DNA from: an uncultured archaeon
GTDB taxonomy: Archaea; Nanohalarchaeota; Nanosalinia; Nanosalinales; Nanoanaerosalinaceae
Length of the DNA: 64,000 nt
Assembly (NCBI GenBank): GCA_964517675.1
Contig: CAZFEL010000005.1
Location: 9,250 to 73,249 of the forward strand
Reading direction: 5' to 3'
A program made the translations under genes and the position numbers. The notes beneath the pieces are model-generated. The model was not told the origin of the DNA. It made no database searches and was given only the letters and a program-made list of their open reading frames with translations. Shown here in pieces: positions 17,060-21,594 of the stretch; position 1 is the stretch's first letter, and every line of letters starts with the position of its first letter.

Positions 17060-17533
17060 ATGCCATACGCGACCCATGCCCCCGGTGATGACGGGACGGA
17101 CGAACGGGTCTATGCGACCTCCTGGGACTTCACGTTCAGCGAGGTCCTGCGGGGCGCACTGGGAGGACGACGGCAGATCAACCGCGCCATCCTGGAGTAC
17201 GCGGAGGAGTTCGAGAAGGCAGCACGCGTCCTCGGTGCCGAGAAAAACGGCTCCTACGTGGATGCCTATGACCCGGTGACGGACACCGAGGCCGGGGTCG
17301 AGGACCCCGACGATCTCTACGATGTCCTGATCGATGACGTCGACGTGGAGGACATTGAGGTACAGTATGAGAAAGACGGTGCAGAGCTATCCTTCCGGTA
17401 CGAACGGGCCGCCAGCAAGCCGTTCACGGTCGAGGTCGAAGGCACAGACCTGCTCGGACTGATGGAACAAGAGCTCGGACGCGGTATGGGAGAGAAAGGG
17501 GAAAACGGAGGCCTGCTCGGCTTCCTGGGCTAG
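17060..17533 (+). CDS. Acidic hypothetical protein
   Basis: ATG at 17060, D/E-rich, convergent with eIF5A. Confidence 0.7.
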   Translation: MPYATHAPGDDGTDERVYATSWDFTFSEVLRGALGGRRQINRAILEYAEEFEKAARVLGAEKNGSYVDAYDPVTDTEAGVEDPDDLYDVLIDDVDVEDIEVQYEKDGAELSFRYERAASKPFTVEVEGTDLLGLMEQELGRGMGEKGENGGLLGFLG

Positions 17534-17916
17534 CCCTGATGCTTGCCCTTGACCATCTTGCGGTCGCCGATGACCCAGTAGTTGATCTCCTCGCCCTCTG
17601 AGATACTGAGATCATCCGGCATCTTCATCTCCTCGGTCTCGTAGGTATCCATATCCATGACCTGGGCGATGTCCCCGTCCAGCGAGACGATCTGGCCGAC
17701 CTTCTTATCGACATCGGGGGACATCAGCATCGTATCGCCCGGCTTGGTCACAGTCCGCGTCTGGTCATCGAAGACACCGACCGCCTGGATGCGGTACTTG
17801 GCCGCACCGTGCTTGCCAGGGGCTGACTTCTTCGTTTTACGTACCTTACAGGGTTCGTCCTCAAGGATGATGTAGTCTCCCTTCGAGACACTCTTGGCTT
17901 CGACCTGATGTGGCAT
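17530..17916 (-). CDS. eif5a: Translation factor aIF5A/eIF5A
   Basis: KSAPGKHGAAK hypusine-site motif. Confidence 0.95.
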   Translation of the reverse strand: MPHQVEAKSVSKGDYIILEDEPCKVRKTKKSAPGKHGAAKYRIQAVGVFDDQTRTVTKPGDTMLMSPDVDKKVGQIVSLDGDIAQVMDMDTYETEEMKMPDDLSISEGEEINYWVIGDRKMVKGKHQG

Positions 17917-18017
17917 GCGTTATTACCTCACTGATTACCTCCCGTCCGGTTCTTTTAAAGGTATTCAAGGGGTCGTGGCCGGGGAGATGCGAGAGCAACA
18001 GAGAGAAAAAGAGAGGA

Positions 18018-18303
18018 GATACGCCCTACGAACCCAGGGGTGTGGGGGAAAGGCGTTCTGTGTTGCCTTCCGGGCTCGTAAAGGCAAAGACGCCTGGCGG
18101 CCCACAGAGGGGCCGCCTGACGCGGGGATGAGGGCGACCTGCTGCAGGGAGGCCGTCCGCAGGACTCGGGGGAGACCTGCATCCGGCCATCTCCTGCCAG
18201 CGCGGGGATACCGCACTGTCGGGGGAAGCCTGTCGCCCTAATATAGGTTTCGTGGGGGGAACCATATCCGGTCAGCGGGCGTCCCTGCCTGAAAGGGCGT
18301 ATC
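18018..18303. ncRNA. Unassigned structured non-coding RNA candidate (about 286 nt)
   Basis: 10-bp terminal stem GATACGCCCT/AGGGCGTATC enclosing at least five hairpins; no acidic ORF in the roughly 500-bp gap; family not recognised. Confidence 0.55.
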
Positions 18304-18417
18304 CCGGCGGTCGTACCGCCATATAGGCCCGCGGGTGTTGGCCCGAGGCCGGTGTGGGGTTGCAGGCACATGGCCTGACTACCATGGGGCGGGCGTGGTG
18401 CCCGCCCTACCATAGGT

Positions 18418-19491
18418 TCATTGCTGTTTGATGACCTTCAGGCCGAGATCGTCCATGTCCTTCACATCGGCCTCCTCGCTGCCCTGTTCCTGGGGCCCGA
18501 GGACGTAGGGTGACTCGACACCGGTGATGATCGAGATGACCTGAACCTTGCCCTCCAGTTCCTCATTGATCCGGGCGCCCCAGATGACCTGGGCCTGTGG
18601 GTCCAGCTTCTCGATGACCGTCTGGCCGATGTCATTGATCTCATTGAGGGACAGTCCCTCGCCACCTTCGACGTGGACAAGGGCACCGTTCGATCCCTCG
18701 AAGTCGACATCCAGGAGCGGGTTGGACAGGGCCTCTGCGATGGCCTCCTTGCCCTTGTTCCTGGTGTCGGACTCTCCGTAGCCTACCACAGCGACACCTC
18801 CGGAATGCATGATGGCCTTGACGTCTGCGTAATCCAGGTTGACCAGGGACGGCTTCGAGATCGTCTCGGTGACGCCTTTGATCATCGTCGTGATCAGCTC
18901 ATCAGCGACACCGAACGCCTGGTCGAGGGGCATGTCCCCTGCGATGTCGATCAGCTTGTCGTTCTCGATGACGATCGCCGTATCGACGAACTCCCGGAGC
19001 CGGACAAGCCCGTCCTCCGCCTTGGATTTCCTCGCACCCTCGATCTGGAACGGCATCGTGACCGTCCCGATGACGATGCAGTCCTCGCTTTTCGCGATGT
19101 CGGCAAGGACAGGGATGGCACCGGTGCCGGTACCGCCTCCAAGACCCGCACAGAGGAACACCATATCAGCGTCAGCAAACAGAGAACGGAGCTCTGAGCG
19201 GTTCTCTTCGGCAGCCTTGGCGCCTTTCTCAGGATGGCCTCCGGCACCGAGTCCCCGGGTGAGGTCCTGTCCGATCAGGATCTTCCGGTCAGCGTTGGAC
19301 ATCTTCAGGTGCTGCTTGTCCGTGTTGACCGCAAGGGTCTCGGCACCGGCAACGTTTTTGTTCTGCATACGCGTTATCATGTTGTTGCCGGCTCCCCCGA
19401 TCCCGACGACAAGGATCTTGGCATCTTTTACGTCGTCAAACTGGTTTGTGTCGTGGTCTTCATCCGCCGCGTCTTCGATGATCGCATTCAT
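18418..19491 (-). CDS. ftsZ: Cell division protein FtsZ (FtsZ2-like)
   Basis: GIGGAGNN, NTDKQHL, GLGAGG, GGGTGTG tubulin signature, NLDYAD. Confidence 0.97.
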   Translation of the reverse strand: MNAIIEDAADEDHDTNQFDDVKDAKILVVGIGGAGNNMITRMQNKNVAGAETLAVNTDKQHLKMSNADRKILIGQDLTRGLGAGGHPEKGAKAAEENRSELRSLFADADMVFLCAGLGGGTGTGAIPVLADIAKSEDCIVIGTVTMPFQIEGARKSKAEDGLVRLREFVDTAIVIENDKLIDIAGDMPLDQAFGVADELITTMIKGVTETISKPSLVNLDYADVKAIMHSGGVAVVGYGESDTRNKGKEAIAEALSNPLLDVDFEGSNGALVHVEGGEGLSLNEINDIGQTVIEKLDPQAQVIWGARINEELEGKVQVISIITGVESPYVLGPQEQGSEEADVKDMDDLGLKVIKQQ

Positions 19492-19580
19492 TGTGCTATC
19501 TCCTCTCGGACAGGTGGACTCCACTACAACAATCTTTTTGTGTGTGGCACATCCACCTACTACTGCCCTTGGTCGGTTAG

Positions 19581-19776
19581 AAGAACTCTAATCGATCTAT
19601 ATTTCGATATGGTTGACTCTGGTTGATCAGAAGTTGCCCAACTCTGGTCGACGTACCCATTGATTCACGTCCTGGATCGTGCCCGCGATCCAAAGTGAAT
19701 CGAACCATGAAACGTTGTAAGCCCAAATCGGAAGTCCGATCAAGTTCGTGTGCCCGCACGAACCAATCGAGTTCTT
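19581..19776 (-). promoter_or_regulatory. Structured leader/ncRNA upstream of ftsZ with repeated YGGGCA-loop hairpins
   Basis: 8-bp closing stem 19581-19588/19769-19776; three hairpins with the same hexaloop; TTTATATA box about 25 nt upstream on the minus strand. Confidence 0.5.
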
Positions 19777-19912
19777 GCTATTTCCCTACTTCACATCCAC
19801 GATATATAAATGTTCTCTGTAGACCAACCCATGTTTTCGATCACATACGTTCTACCACAACATCTCTCTCCGGCCCACACAACTTAAAACAGTGGACCGC
19901 CATGACCTGCCC

Positions 19913-20194
19913 ATGGTCGAGAACGAGACACTCGAACAGGTCGCGGCCAACGCCCGGCTCGACCTGACCGAGGAAGAGAAAGAACGGTTCCGGCAGGACC
20001 TCGAGGACATCCTCGATGCCTTCGAGTCACTCGATGATATCGATACCGACGGGGTCGAACCCGCCTTCCACCCGATCGAGCTCCAGGACAGGGAACGGGA
20101 GGACCGTGAGGAGGACTGCCTCGACCAGGCACGTGCACTCGAGAACACGGAAAACAGCGAGGACGGATACTTCAAGGGGCCGCGGGCGACATGA
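19913..20194 (+). CDS. gatC: Asp/Glu-tRNA amidotransferase subunit C
   Basis: VAANARLDL...LEDILDAF...REDREE...GYFKGPR; overlaps gatA start. Confidence 0.9.
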   Translation: MVENETLEQVAANARLDLTEEEKERFRQDLEDILDAFESLDDIDTDGVEPAFHPIELQDREREDREEDCLDQARALENTENSEDGYFKGPRAT

Positions 20195-21594
20195 GACGGA
20201 CCACCGCGACCGACCAGATCGAGGGCGATACAAGCGTCTCGATGGACGACGTCCGGCAGCGGATCGAGGAGGTCAACGAAAAGCTCGATGCCGTCCGGGC
20301 GACGGACTGGGACCGGGACGCCTCAAATGGCCGTCTCGACGGGCTCCCCATCACCGCCAAAGACAACATCTGCGTCGAGGGCATGCCAGCGACGGCAGGC
20401 TCGAAGATACTCGAACCGTACGAGCCACCGTTCACCGCCACCGCCGCACAGCGGCTCGAGGACGAGGGCGGCCGGGTGATCGCGAAGACCAACCAGGACG
20501 AGTTCGGCTTCGGCACCTTCTCGATGAACTCCGCCTACGAGATACCCAAGAACCCACACGACACCGACAGAGTGACCGGGGGGTCCTCCGGCGGGGCAGC
20601 AGCACTGACAGCCGCACTCGACCGGCCCCACCTCGCCCTGGGCCAGTCCACCGGCGGGTCGATCTCCTGTCCAGCCGCGTTCTGCGGAGTCGTCGGCCTG
20701 ACACCGACCTACGGCCGGGTCTCACGGTACGGCCTGATCGATTACGCCAACTCCATGGACAAGATCGGGCCGATCGCACGGTCCGTCGAGGACGCGGCCC
20801 ACGGCCTCGAGATCATCGCCGGCGAGGATCCTGACGATTTCACCACCGCGGGCCGCGATGTCCCAGCATACAGCAACCTCCAGGGACGTCTCGATGGCAC
20901 CACGATCGGGGTCCCGACACAGTACATGAACTACGAAGGCGTCGATGAGCGGGTCCGGGAGGAGGTCTGGTCCTCGATCAAGCGGATGGAGGACCTCGGT
21001 GCGGAGGTCAAAGAGATATCCCTGCCGAAGATCGCCAAGAACTACGCATTGCCCGCATACTACATCACCGCCGTCGCGGAGGCCTCGACCAACCTGGCCC
21101 GGTACGCCGGGATGCGGTACGGTCTCGAGGGCAACCCCGAACGACAGAACTACGATGCGTACTTCTCAGGGATACGAAGTAAGGGGTTCGGCGAGGAGAC
21201 CAAACGGCGCATCCTGCTCGGTACCTTCGCCCGCCAGGCAGGCTACCGGGACGATTACTACATGAAGGCCCTCAAGGTCCGCCGTCTCGTGATCGATGAA
21301 TTCAAGCGCGGCTTCAAGGACGTCGACATGCTGGCGGCCCCCACCATGCCGATCCCGGCACCGACCCGGGACGAGGCGGACGATCTGCCACCGACGGAGG
21401 TCTACGCGATGGACACACTGACCGTCGGCCCGAACCTCGCCGGGATGCCCCAGCTTTCATTGCCCACAGGAACCGTTGACGGCATGCCGGTCGGACTCCA
21501 TCTGATAGGGGCACAGTTCGACGAGAAAAGCCTCATCCAGGCAGGCCTGGCATACGAACAACAGGAGGGCCTGATCGATCTCCCTGATATCTAG
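20191..21594 (+). CDS. gatA: Asp/Glu-tRNA amidotransferase subunit A
   Basis: AKDNI, KTNQDEFGFG, GGSSGGAA, STGGSISCPA, ETKRRILLGTF. Confidence 0.93.
   Translation: MRRTTATDQIEGDTSVSMDDVRQRIEEVNEKLDAVRATDWDRDASNGRLDGLPITAKDNICVEGMPATAGSKILEPYEPPFTATAAQRLEDEGGRVIAKTNQDEFGFGTFSMNSAYEIPKNPHDTDRVTGGSSGGAAALTAALDRPHLALGQSTGGSISCPAAFCGVVGLTPTYGRVSRYGLIDYANSMDKIGPIARSVEDAAHGLEIIAGEDPDDFTTAGRDVPAYSNLQGRLDGTTIGVPTQYMNYEGVDERVREEVWSSIKRMEDLGAEVKEISLPKIAKNYALPAYYITAVAEASTNLARYAGMRYGLEGNPERQNYDAYFSGIRSKGFGEETKRRILLGTFARQAGYRDDYYMKALKVRRLVIDEFKRGFKDVDMLAAPTMPIPAPTRDEADDLPPTEVYAMDTLTVGPNLAGMPQLSLPTGTVDGMPVGLHLIGAQFDEKSLIQAGLAYEQQEGLIDLPDI

Follow-up and report, generated by a model that had tools for sequence, protein, structure and literature searches.

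Short hairpins, two to five at a time, with variable stems and shared UUGG(G)C tips, are arrayed upstream of ftsZ in about 100 archaeal loci. The existence of this array, its conservation, its covariation, its anatomy and its exclusive association with ftsZ were all observed directly in the sequences compared, which extend from hypersaline Nanohaloarchaea (38–65% GC) to relatives of a Woesearchaeota MAG that are low in GC and come from many habitats. No prior description of such a hairpin array was found in the full-text literature, and the array is best explained as a cis-regulatory module through which DPANN archaea would control ftsZ, lineage-wide and so far undescribed.

The window, that is, the whole stretch of 64,000 nucleotides that was analysed, stems from a nanohaloarchaeon and carries ftsZ divergently to gatC, which is followed by gatA. 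Its FtsZ is 92% identical to that of the Ca. Asbonarchaeum danakilense locus; the exact window FtsZ was found, among public assemblies, on metagenome contigs only. The region between ftsZ and gatC has a GC content of 0.477 vs 0.607 for the whole window and is indeed AT-richer, as the first-pass annotation had stated, and the cumulative GC skew falls smoothly past 19.7 kb. Two ORFs lie in or reach into this region (19577–19759, minus strand, and 19623–19967, plus strand), neither of which has a Pfam match, and the alignment of the region among relatives shows indels throughout, breaking any reading frame. Therefore, no CdrS-like ORF precedes ftsZ, in agreement with that annotation. The features of the locus are as follows, with RNA letters given in the sense of ftsZ:

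18418–19491, minus strand: ftsZ coding sequence, 357 amino acids (Pfam Tubulin 3.6e-45, FtsZ_C 2.4e-30)
19500–19503, minus strand: Shine-Dalgarno-like GGAG, from the sequence, 8 nt before the ftsZ ATG
19513–19557, minus strand: inverted repeat GGUGGA...UCCACC with an inner helix, enclosing the A-box (fold)
19534–19541, minus strand: A-box ACAAAAAG, candidate proximal promoter "P2" (conservation and likeness to the gatC box)
19564–19569, minus strand: extra AGGGCA motif with no clear hairpin (sequence)
19577–19588, minus strand: 3′ arm of the closing helix, GAGUUCUU at 19588–19581, overlapping the conserved UUCUAA (19582–19577)
19628–19646, minus strand: motif hairpin C, CAGAGU-UGGGCA-ACUUCUG, 6 bp with one bulged U
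19663–19669 and 19695–19701, minus strand: outer helix GAUUCAC/GUGAAUC of hairpin B, the whole of which spans 19663–19701 (sequence and fold)
19673–19692, minus strand: motif hairpin B, inner part, UGGAUCG-CGGGCA-CGAUCCA, perfect 7-bp stem
19727–19740, minus strand: small hairpin without the motif, AUCGG-ACUU-CCGAU (sequence and fold)
19744–19763, minus strand: motif hairpin A, GUUCGUG-CGGGCA-CACGAAC, perfect 7-bp stem
19770–19777, minus strand: 5′ arm of the closing helix, AAGAACUC, pairing with 19581–19588
19803–19818, minus strand: distal promoter-like box "P1", AGAGAACA (BRE-like, 19818–19811) followed by TTTATATA (19810–19803)
19884–20194, plus strand: gatC with its own box, TTAAAAC at 19884–19890, 23 nt before the ATG (coding sequence 19913–20194; Pfam GatC 2.3e-19)

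The three YGGGCA hairpins of the first-pass annotation, which had read them on the plus strand (A, GTTCGTG-tgcccg-CACGAAC; B, TGGATCG-tgcccg-CGATCCA; C, CAGAAGT-tgccca-ACTCTG), are all present, two of them perfect over 7 bp and the third, C, imperfect because of its bulge. Its fourth hairpin (ATCGG-aagt-CCGAT on the plus strand) was also found, lacks the motif and is kept in sequence in the closest relative, locus L001. The 8-bp closing stem, AAGAACTC (19581–19588) with GAGTTCTT (19770–19777), appears in the minimum-energy folds of both strands and is partly retained in L001 (AGAACT/AGTTCT); the fold of the window places the hairpins within one closed multibranch domain. At the position of the extra AGGGCA motif, four relatives (L001, L002, L004 and L005) have GGGC. 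Both copies of the 9-bp direct repeat CACATCCAC exist (19548–19556 and 19792–19800); the repeat is missing from L001 and may therefore be due to chance. For the hairpins themselves, chance is excluded: when YGGGCA/TGCCCR hexaloops on perfect stems of at least 7 bp were counted on both strands of the 64-kb window, two were found, vs a mean of 0.000 and a maximum of 0 in 300 dinucleotide-preserving shuffles. No further YGGGCA stem-loops were found elsewhere in the window.

Across related loci, the hairpins concentrate in front of ftsZ. In 57 related genome loci, 128 strict hairpins fall within the leaders of ftsZ (about 300–310 nt) vs 2 elsewhere (both strands, about 350 kb), and in 80 metagenome contigs related to a Woesearchaeota MAG, hereafter the Woesearchaeota-like set, 96 hairpins with the loop UUGGCG fall within the leaders vs 4 elsewhere. 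The loop varies by lineage, being YGGGCA in that of the window, UUGGGC(G) in most Nanohaloarchaea and UUGGCG in the relatives of the Woesearchaeota MAG. An unbiased census, in which every perfect hairpin of at least 6 bp was listed, recovers the same motifs: UUGGCG makes up 42 of 216 hairpins in the Woesearchaeota-like set, where the runner-up loop occurs 4 times, and UUGGGC, GGGC and UUUGGGCG dominate in Nanohaloarchaea. The divergent neighbour is gatC in 51 Nanohaloarchaeal loci and a GatD gene (Pfam GatD_N) in many Woesearchaeota-like contigs. The array still adjoins ftsZ where gatC is displaced and lies 0.9–1.9 kb away (L053, L017) and where the upstream gene is another one or is co-directional (L074, L095, L123, L124, L089, L134), and there are gatD-ftsZ pairs without an array (L101, L104, L107). 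In addition, core Nanohaloarchaea show hardly any variation in TTCTA(A/T)GGTAGA, and TTCTAAG-like sequences occur in Woesearchaeota-like contigs.

The covariation within one locus pointed out by the first-pass annotation now extends across about 100 loci. Taking every TTGGCG in the leaders, whatever its flanks, and scoring 8 flanking positions, the flanks pair in 76.3% of cells vs 42.9 ± 1.7% in 500 shuffles, none of which came as high, and 35–48% in slid controls, with all four Watson-Crick pair types at every position. The YGGGCA set gives 61.0% vs 40.8%, and the two hairpin sets contain 48 and 34 distinct loop-proximal arms. The comparison with L001 shows the same at the level of single hairpins. 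The counterpart of A has another stem around the same motif (UCCUG-UUGGGCG-CAGGA), while both helices of B differ by compensatory changes, from GGAUCG/CGAUCC in the window to GAAUCG/CGAUUC for the inner helix and from GAUUCA/UGAAUC to GGUUCA/UGAACC for the outer one. C has its core (GAAGU-UGGGCA-ACUUC) and the sequence that follows on the 3′ side in common with L001, from which it differs at the outermost two positions of the 5′ arm.

The array (19628–19763) lies between two promoter-like boxes, the distal box (19803–19818) and the A-box (19534–19541). The minus-strand TATA-like box TTTATATA of the first-pass annotation does sit at 19803–19810, suitably spaced from the closing stem downstream of it, with a predicted start at about 19780. 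Nearly all Nanohaloarchaeal loci have an (A/G)AA(C/G)A-TTTATAAA box that precedes the ftsZ ATG by 220–325 nt, and a similar box is kept in Woesearchaeota-like contigs whose upstream gene is co-directional with ftsZ. We infer that this distal box is a promoter pointing to ftsZ: it has a purine-rich 5′ flank in that direction, and the BRE-TATA order is established for archaeal promoters. Just upstream of it, TGAACAG direct repeats with a 10-nt period are present in more than 30 genomes. The A-box, TTAAAAAGGTT, is nearly invariant across Nanohaloarchaea and shares the form of the gatC box, in which, for 28 of 40 genomes, 21–23 nt separate the end of the A-run from the start codon of gatC; by this likeness in sequence, it is probably a second, proximal promoter of ftsZ downstream of the array. 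Therefore, ftsZ need not depend on the leader. A proximal promoter following an untranscribed and unconserved region had been named as the picture that would speak against a leader; the proximal promoter is likely, and the region is strongly conserved and has a promoter-like box of its own. The direction of these TATA-like boxes must be interpreted cautiously because they are near-palindromic, the "canonical BRE-TATA" grammar and the grammar of the gatC/gatD boxes giving opposite directions.

Structure is also present around the A-box itself. In 35 core Nanohaloarchaea, the equivalent of the inverted repeat that encloses it (Y:Z) pairs in 74% of cells vs 66 ± 1.4% in shuffles, none of 500 of which reached the observed value; both sides change in 5 of 7 pairs. 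Since this repeat straddles the A-box and covaries, transcription from upstream of the A-box would be required. Regarding the rest of this 3′ module, RNAalifold on the last 100 nt or so of the leader returned no consensus structure, and among other helices defined by hand, X:Y is conserved without covariation and Z:Y′ is weak, so that an attenuator-like 1:2 / 2:3 / 3:4 switch is put forward as a suggestion only. A covariance model of the core-Nanohaloarchaeal module (R1) matches core members only and retrieves neither the lineage of the window nor the Woesearchaeota-like contigs. The homology of the 3′ module across lineages is based on short motifs recognized by eye (TTCTAA; AAAG-A/G-TT).

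Several properties of the arrays bear on the strand that acts. Their stems are about 97% Watson-Crick, with no excess of G·U on the sense strand. Exceptions of the G·U type and of the A·C type stand at 19:16 and 8:12 in Nanohaloarchaea and at 3:22 and 4:18 in the Woesearchaeota-like set, the latter placing the wobble pairs on the antisense strand; since these counts are contradictory, neutral in the former and antisense in the latter, they were not used for strand assignment. The window array folds with −71.6 kcal/mol on the antisense vs −66.1 kcal/mol on the sense strand. In 43 of 46 and 21 of 25 arrays, it is the antisense strand that has the lower fold z-score, but raw energies are similar; the z-scores were rejected as evidence because the gap is largely one of base composition, the sense background being rich in G+U. 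On the sense strand, the arrays of the AT-rich clade contain 23 T-runs of at least 5 in 1.87 kb, where the coding sequence of ftsZ has 0.37 per kb, and the runs in the arrays should terminate archaeal transcription. A-runs precede the first hairpin in 18 of 26 arrays of this clade, which on the antisense strand equals a hairpin followed by a T-run of at least 5. Nanohaloarchaea show one T-run of at least 5 on the sense strand in 4.3 kb of arrays and one of at least 4 in the 5.3 kb between array and ftsZ ATG. The interpretation of the first-pass annotation (an RNA leader or sRNA, or a DNA hairpin array) is supported in part: a conserved, ftsZ-linked stem-loop array stands, and an RNA of the ftsZ strand finds no support in wobble pairs.

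Quite possibly, if short of probably, the array forms the 5′ part of a long ftsZ leader made from the distal promoter, in which the repeated loops bind a trans-acting factor. Under this model, ftsZ would be served by tandem promoters, the distal box and the proximal A-box, and transcripts from the former would begin with a leader of some 290 nt whose 5′ domain is the array. The identical loops would offer multivalent docking sites to a single trans-acting partner, most simply a cooperative or oligomeric RNA-binding protein, and the degree to which the array is occupied would determine how stable the long mRNA is or how well it is translated, possibly via the alternative base pairing near the A-box and the ribosome-binding site. 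Where transcripts start, which strand is active, what the partner is and what the regulation achieves are what we infer. A leader is supported by the array staying with ftsZ, and not with the neighbour, when synteny changes, and sense transcription by the BRE-TATA order of the distal box, by its persistence without a divergent gene, by the TGAACAG repeats just upstream of it, by the covarying inverted repeat around the A-box and by the lack of sense T-runs in Nanohaloarchaeal arrays and in the stretch to the ATG. Nevertheless, the missing wobble signature, the antisense fold, better by about 5 kcal/mol, and the T-runs of the AT-rich clade weaken it. Further points against it are the probable proximal promoter, the uncertain direction of the TATA-like boxes and, for the 3′ module, the lack of an RNAalifold consensus and the restriction of model R1 to core members.

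These same observations lend weight to an antisense or two-strand RNA, with loops UGCCCG, GCCCAA or CGCCAA, that would regulate ftsZ as a cis-antisense RNA, possibly with loop-loop "kissing" of complementary hairpins as a first step, as in plasmid copy control. The wobble pairs of the Woesearchaeota-like set, the more stable antisense fold in the window and the T-runs that follow the last antisense hairpin in most AT-rich arrays all agree with it, and the near-absence of non-Watson-Crick pairs is the expected outcome of selection on both strands together. Moreover, read on the other strand, the A-box is T-rich and then A-rich, like a canonical archaeal TATA box, and UUGG, in the sense loop, conforms to the YUNR U-turn known from kissing loops, a resemblance only. 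We nevertheless regard this reading as fairly unlikely. The gatC box, the clade's example of known direction, makes the A-box point to ftsZ; Nanohaloarchaea show no other evident antisense promoter and also nearly lack T-runs between array and ATG; their wobble counts are neutral, the z-score difference is largely compositional, and a cis-antisense pair does not need identical loops from hairpin to hairpin or across phyla. A special form of it, in which boxes placed face to face (the distal box and a reversed A-box) yield transcripts of the array from both strands and kissing between UUGG(G)C and (G)CCAA gates ftsZ, seems quite unlikely, even though such a switch would explain the pure Watson-Crick stems, the absent sense wobble bias and the loops that fit a U-turn.

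The array could also act as DNA, as palindromes in an untranscribed spacer between divergent promoters (the distal box toward gatC, the A-box toward ftsZ) that form hairpins or cruciforms under negative supercoiling caused by transcription or on DNA that is transiently single-stranded, where a loop-recognising protein would control one or both promoters. Almost purely Watson-Crick stems with no consistent strand bias, T-runs on both strands of AT-rich arrays, as if read-through were unselected either way, and promoter-like boxes on both sides fit such a view, as does the distal box, which on the gatC strand has the "A-run, K, N, TT" form of the gatC box. We consider it unlikely, since the arms are mostly of 5–8 bp with 6-nt loops, which by the established energetics of DNA would be short for cruciform extrusion, and hairpins this short are typical of RNA-protein sites. 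In addition, a factor binding double-stranded DNA does not need variable palindromic flanks around a fixed asymmetric centre, and where the distal box is kept with a co-directional upstream gene, there is nothing to transcribe the opposite way. If the distal promoter instead made a separate small sense RNA, ending before or at the proximal promoter and titrating an RNA-binding protein in trans as a sponge, in the manner of CsrB/RsmZ, while ftsZ is transcribed from the proximal box alone, the several hairpins with one loop motif and the proximal promoter-like box would be accounted for, and T-runs inside AT-rich arrays could end the transcript. This is improbable: the array keeps one place and one orientation beside ftsZ in some 100 loci of two lineages, which argues for action in cis, the motif is near no other genes in the 64-kb window or in the 600–620 kb or so of the loci, so that no targets are seen, Nanohaloarchaea have essentially no T-runs between array and ftsZ, and the inverted repeat across the A-box covaries. 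A role of the array on the plus strand, as leader or attenuator for the tRNA-amidotransferase genes that diverge from ftsZ (gatCA, or gatD in Woesearchaeota-like contigs), was suggested by their frequency as neighbours, by the CCA of the plus-strand loops and by the occurrence of hairpin-plus-T-run configurations; it is largely refuted by synteny, the array following ftsZ when these genes are displaced, replaced or co-directional and being absent from some gatD-ftsZ pairs, while gatC owns a box close to its start codon, and its probability is very small indeed. Smaller still, practically negligible, is that of a chance palindrome cluster or a mobile repeat of the MITE, REP or BIME type, for which the 8-bp inverted repeat bounding the hairpin set in the window might speak; it is refuted by the shuffles, by rarity elsewhere (no second copy in the window and, over about 620 kb from 137 related loci, 2 + 4 strays) and by the fixed position and orientation to ftsZ across two lineages.

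Very little is known of the control of ftsZ in archaea, and nothing of the timing of division in DPANN archaea, which are ultra-small symbionts. An element exclusive to ftsZ with a simple, mutable anatomy of fixed loop and free stems is an experimental handle, and it could mark ftsZ regulation in metatranscriptomes of uncultured lineages. To our knowledge, conserved cis-regulatory nucleic-acid structures are rare in archaea; therefore, a new one at a central division gene should interest both RNA biologists and archaeal cell biologists.

Known classes of element were compared with the array. Rfam 15 gave 0 matches in the window at the gathering score; with E up to 10 over 17400–20400, the sole match on the region was a sub-threshold SraC_RyeA (27.9 bits vs 37; 19478–19608), and twenty related loci gave one tRNA, located elsewhere. 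An archaeal replication origin, which would have inverted ORB or mini-ORB repeats around an AT-rich unwinding element, usually beside orc1/cdc6, and a skew switch, was rejected, as the repeats have one orientation, the neighbours are gatC and ftsZ, the GC skew is smooth at 19.7 kb and the loop motif does not resemble ORB; CRISPR and small-ORF readings were likewise rejected. An intrinsic terminator or attenuator does not fit the window and the Nanohaloarchaea, given the scarcity of sense T-runs in their arrays. The AT-rich clade, for its part, has T-runs within arrays and, on the antisense strand, after them.

T-boxes are bacterial, precede aminoacyl-tRNA synthetase genes and pair a UGGN bulge with the NCCA 3′ end of a tRNA. 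The array recalls them in its loop core, UGG plus a lineage-specific base, and in the tRNA-amidotransferase gene that is its usual neighbour, whereas it has no Stem I, specifier or terminator/antiterminator, and two of the three window loops are CGGG. A T-box leader was rejected, there being no Rfam match, an archaeal ftsZ downstream and no T-run terminator in the window leader. The speculative variant in which UGGN loops capture the NCCA 3′ ends of uncharged tRNAs, coupling division to tRNA charging, is very improbable.

RNA control of ftsZ has precedents in the DicF and antisense StfZ RNAs of E. coli. Kissing-loop systems (R1 CopA/CopT, ColE1 RNA I/RNA II) share with the array palindromes that fold on both strands and U-turn-like loops; when compared point by point, the array has hairpins on both strands, wobbles that are neutral or antisense, and a UUGG that fits YUNR, while an antisense promoter would be arguable on only one reading of the near-palindromic A-box. 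In contrast, cis-antisense pairing needs no identical loops, and the antisense promoter and transcript are hypothetical here. The cdrS-ftsZ2 operon of Halobacteria is similar as a dedicated regulatory device immediately upstream of an archaeal ftsZ; however, CdrS is encoded by a small ribbon-helix-helix gene co-transcribed with ftsZ2, whereas the array region is non-coding, and an operon of this type was excluded by the ORFs and the alignment described above.

Multivalent protein-binding RNAs are also among the close parallels. In Csr/Rsm systems (CsrA leaders, CsrB/RsmZ), several stem-loops display a short G-rich motif for multivalent protein binding, as the array would do, and translation is controlled in this way; their motif is A(N)GGA and their protein the bacterial CsrA, whereas the array is tied in cis to one gene with no other targets seen, and its loop consensus, U-U-G-G-(G)-C, has no GGA, which speaks against an RNA of that type. 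The iron-responsive element (IRE) of animal mRNAs has a CAGUGN hexaloop and a C bulge five base pairs below it and is eukaryotic; the array, archaeal and putatively RNA, has UUGG(G)C loops (YGGGCA, UUGGGC or UUGGCG) and no conserved bulge, and is thus not an IRE-like element. Nevertheless, the IRE/IRP system resembles it in overall design, with a fixed hexaloop on arbitrary stems, repeated within one untranslated region, whose copies bind the same protein.

All the sequence features that the first-pass annotation had listed upstream of ftsZ are in place in the window. This includes the higher AT content of the region, the 421-nt ftsZ/gatC spacer having a GC content of 0.477 against 0.607 for the window, and the absence of a CdrS-like ORF, the ORFs overlapping the intergenic region carrying no Pfam domain.

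Features of the ftsZ locus (window positions; sense denotes the ftsZ strand, minus in the window)
18418-19491, minus: ftsZ (Pfam Tubulin and FtsZ_C)
19581-19588 with 19770-19777: closing helix, 8 bp
19628-19646: third hairpin, C, loop UGGGCA, one bulge
19673-19692: perfect 7-bp hairpin, B, loop TGCCCG on the plus strand (sense CGGGCA); a second helix extends it to 19663-19701
19727-19740: small hairpin without the motif
19744-19763: perfect 7-bp hairpin, A, plus-strand loop TGCCCG (sense CGGGCA)
19803-19810, minus: TTTATATA
19884-19890, plus: A-rich box of gatC
from 19913, plus: gatC-gatA, divergent to ftsZ (Pfam; box and genes 19884-21594)

Two perfect hairpins of the YGGGCA type occur in the whole window, both strands considered, against a mean of 0.000 in 300 dinucleotide-preserving shuffles. 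Rfam searches of the array region retrieved no family in the window or in 20 related loci, and the 64-kb window contains no Rfam family at gathering score and no tRNA gene (ARAGORN). A sub-threshold match to SraC/RyeA, an enterobacterial sRNA, at 19478-19608 on the minus strand (27.9 bits, gathering score 37, E = 0.013) spans the ftsZ start and the hairpin of the proximal A-rich box (A-box) and, given the host, is almost certainly due to chance. The previously noted 9-bp direct repeat CACATCCAC is real, with one copy beside each promoter-like box (19548-19556 and 19792-19800), but L001, the closest relative of the window, lacks it, and it is for this reason probably fortuitous.

On the other side of ftsZ, between its stop (18418) and the eIF5A start (17916), a GC-rich stretch of about 480 nt (17930-18410, minus) is devoid of any plausible ORF. 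Its fold energy is -234.5 kcal/mol (z = -6.6 vs dinucleotide shuffles), and it shares 70% identity over 413 nt with the post-ftsZ stretch of L001 and contains CCCGGAAGG...ACAGAAC. Rfam gives no match with the E-value limit relaxed to 10, and the stretch is possibly a structured RNA, both large and divergent.

The close relatives of the window by FtsZ are all Nanohaloarchaea, including Ca. Asbonarchaeum danakilense (92% identity), and the exact window FtsZ sequence was found on metagenome contigs only. A scan covered 57 genome loci, each about 7 kb long, and required a stem of 5 or more Watson-Crick pairs closing one of the loops YGGGCR, UUGGGC, UUUGGGCG or KUGGGA; it recovered 128 hairpins within about 310 nt upstream of ftsZ vs 2 elsewhere on both strands. 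Nearly every genome has two to five motif hairpins, in one shared orientation relative to ftsZ and at about -90 to -280, with the logo U(77%)-Y-G-G-G-C(81%)-R; compensatory changes in hairpins A and B already separate the window from L001. A contig labelled "MAG: Colwellia polaris" (JBLGBK010000009.1, L026) also displays a nanohaloarchaeal FtsZ (76% identity), gatC and the full hairpin array, and is evidently mis-binned.

The sole Woesearchaeota MAG among the matches (L051; FtsZ 57% identity) showed similar hairpins, and its FtsZ was therefore used to gather 80 metagenome contigs (69-76% identity to L051, GC 0.28-0.53). Most of these Woesearchaeota-like contigs present the same kind of array with the loop UUGGCG, strict hairpins numbering 96 upstream of ftsZ vs 4 elsewhere. 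In an unbiased list of 216 perfect hairpins (at least 6 bp) from these leaders, UUGGCG is the loop of 42, any other loop occurring at most 4 times, and the motif logo is U(85%)-U-G-G-C(64%)-G(56%)-A. Some contigs are array-free (for example L084, L086, L090, L106, L113-L115, L126, L128, L130 and L137) and show just one promoter-like box, some 80 nt ahead of the ATG. Variant loop motifs (AAGGCGG, UUGGUU, GUGGCG) occupy the same place in L111, L117, L133, L135, L136 and L094, so that GG, mostly with a U in front, is kept, and the base or bases following it vary from one lineage to another.

Covariation was assessed on the 85 distinct 22-mers given by every TTGGCG occurrence in the Woesearchaeota-like leaders, whatever the flanks. 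Over the eight flanking positions, 76.3% of cells are paired, against 42.9 ± 1.7% in shuffles (0/500 as high) and 35-48% in slid controls, with a covariation score of 0.736 vs 0.190 and AU, UA, GC and CG each present at every position. The 82 Nanohaloarchaeal YGGGCA instances likewise show 61.0% pairing vs 40.8 ± 1.7%. The loop is thus constrained in sequence and the stems to pairing alone, a combination that rules out a double-strand-binding dimer reading half-sites. A single-stranded nucleic acid of some kind must fold into the hairpins.

The divergent neighbour of ftsZ is gatC in 51 Nanohaloarchaeal loci and a GatD gene (Pfam GatD_N) in many Woesearchaeota-like contigs, so that in two lineages a tRNA-dependent amidotransferase gene (gatC-gatA or gatD) is the divergent partner of ftsZ (L001-L058, L067, L068, L070, L071, L075, L087, L092, L094, L118, L125, L136). 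Three synteny observations argue against the array being a plus-strand leader of these genes. It adjoins ftsZ even with gatC 0.9-1.9 kb away (L053, L017) and where the neighbour is different or co-directional (L074, L095, L123, L124, L089, L134), and some gatD-ftsZ pairs have no array (L101, L104, L107). Therefore, the element belongs to ftsZ.

Upstream of the array, 220-325 nt from the ATG, lies a strongly conserved distal box, (A/G)AA(C/G)A-TTTATAAA, whose window version is AGAGAACA-TTTATATA. Archaeal promoters present a purine-rich BRE followed by TATA, and the box has this order when read towards ftsZ; it persists in contigs whose upstream gene is co-directional with ftsZ. In more than 30 core Nanohaloarchaeal loci, two or three TGAACAG direct repeats with a 10-nt period, all in ftsZ orientation, precede it (-311 and -301 in L016; -342, -332 and -313 in L019). 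Located between the gatC box and the distal box, some 20-60 nt ahead of the TTTATAAA of the latter in L011-L057, and absent from the window lineage, they look like transcription-factor sites.

Downstream of the array, TTCTA(A/T)GGTAGA is nearly invariant (TTCTAA at 19577-19582 in the window). The A-box follows the form TTAAAAAGGTT, read in the window as ACAAAAAGATT on the minus strand with a ACAAAAAG core at 19534-19541. The A-rich gatC box, tACAAAAAGcTT, has an A-run that stops 21-23 nt ahead of the start codon of gatC in 28/40 genomes (23 nt in the window), a spacing that implies that this clade has a TATA box of the A-run type and gatC mRNAs without a leader. As the A-box has the same form, it is probably a proximal ftsZ promoter, from which the leader would be some 7-23 nt long (about 21 nt in the window, including GGAG at 19500-19503). 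An inverted repeat straddling the A-box is paired in 74.3% of cells vs 66.1 ± 1.4% in shuffles (0/500) and 25-37% when slid, with both-side changes in 5/7 pairs and AU, GU and GC at one position; two conserved alternative helices beside it are putative and unproven. RNAalifold gave no single consensus structure for this 3' module, between the array and the ATG, and a covariance model of its core-Nanohaloarchaeal form retrieves neither the window lineage nor the Woesearchaeota-like contigs. Therefore, cross-lineage homology is secure for the hairpin array and only suggestive for the 3' module.

The element is an array of short hairpins, conserved and specific to ftsZ, whose UUGG(G)C tip is invariant; it lies between two promoter-like boxes and is common to two deep DPANN lineages. 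We tentatively favour a reading in which ftsZ would be under tandem promoters, the structured 5' domain of the distal transcripts would be the array, whose repeated loops would draw one trans-acting partner setting translation or stability of the ftsZ mRNA. With 5-8 bp and 6-nt loops, the hairpins are of a size typical of RNA-protein sites and ill suited to cruciforms, which argues for this leader over a DNA-level hairpin element between divergent promoters, an alternative we consider quite unlikely. The distal box is moreover kept even where only the ftsZ direction can be served, the inverted repeat spanning the proximal box depends on transcription that starts further upstream, and the identity of the loops in all hairpins and both lineages calls for a shared reader. 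The least probable of the alternatives still in play is a separate small RNA of the sponge type, which would leave the array outside the ftsZ mRNA.

Nevertheless, these two alternatives and an antisense or two-strand (kissing) RNA mechanism, itself unlikely, stay alive because the sense-strand wobble signature is missing. In a sense RNA, G·U pairs are expected to outnumber A·C mismatches; this excess was not seen, the array stems being about 97% Watson-Crick. G·U-type vs A·C-type exceptions are 19:16 (internal), 36:24 (terminal) and 8:12 in Nanohaloarchaea, and 3:22, 10:25 and 4:18 in the Woesearchaeota-like set, where the wobble pairs therefore sit on the antisense strand. In the window, the fold energy of the array is -66.1 kcal/mol in sense (z = -3.1) and -71.6 kcal/mol in antisense (z = -5.4), a z-score gap that across loci is mostly due to the G+U-rich sense composition. 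In the AT-rich Woesearchaeota-like clade, sense-strand T-runs of at least 5 reach 12 per kb in the arrays vs 0.37 per kb in the ftsZ CDS, and A-runs lie within 45 nt before the array in 18/26, that is, a hairpin followed by a T-run on the other strand. Nanohaloarchaeal arrays have no such runs on either strand, and their array-to-ATG stretch avoids T-runs. The TATA-like boxes are near-palindromic, the "canonical" grammar and that of the gatC/gatD boxes giving opposite directions.

Two further identities were set aside: a mobile repeat, as the array hairpins have no dispersed copies across the window and the related loci scanned, and a replication origin, as the locus has no origin-like features. 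The array lacks the GGA motif of Csr/Rsm RNAs, the CAGUGN loop of IREs and the T-box architecture, and its region lacks the CdrS-like ORF of a CdrS-type operon. Since these defining features are absent and full-text literature searches gave no description of the element, we rate it as a candidate new family of repeated-hairpin regulatory element. Its logic may resemble that of kissing-loop antisense systems, and it shares with IREs and Csr/Rsm RNAs the repetition of a fixed loop on free stems.
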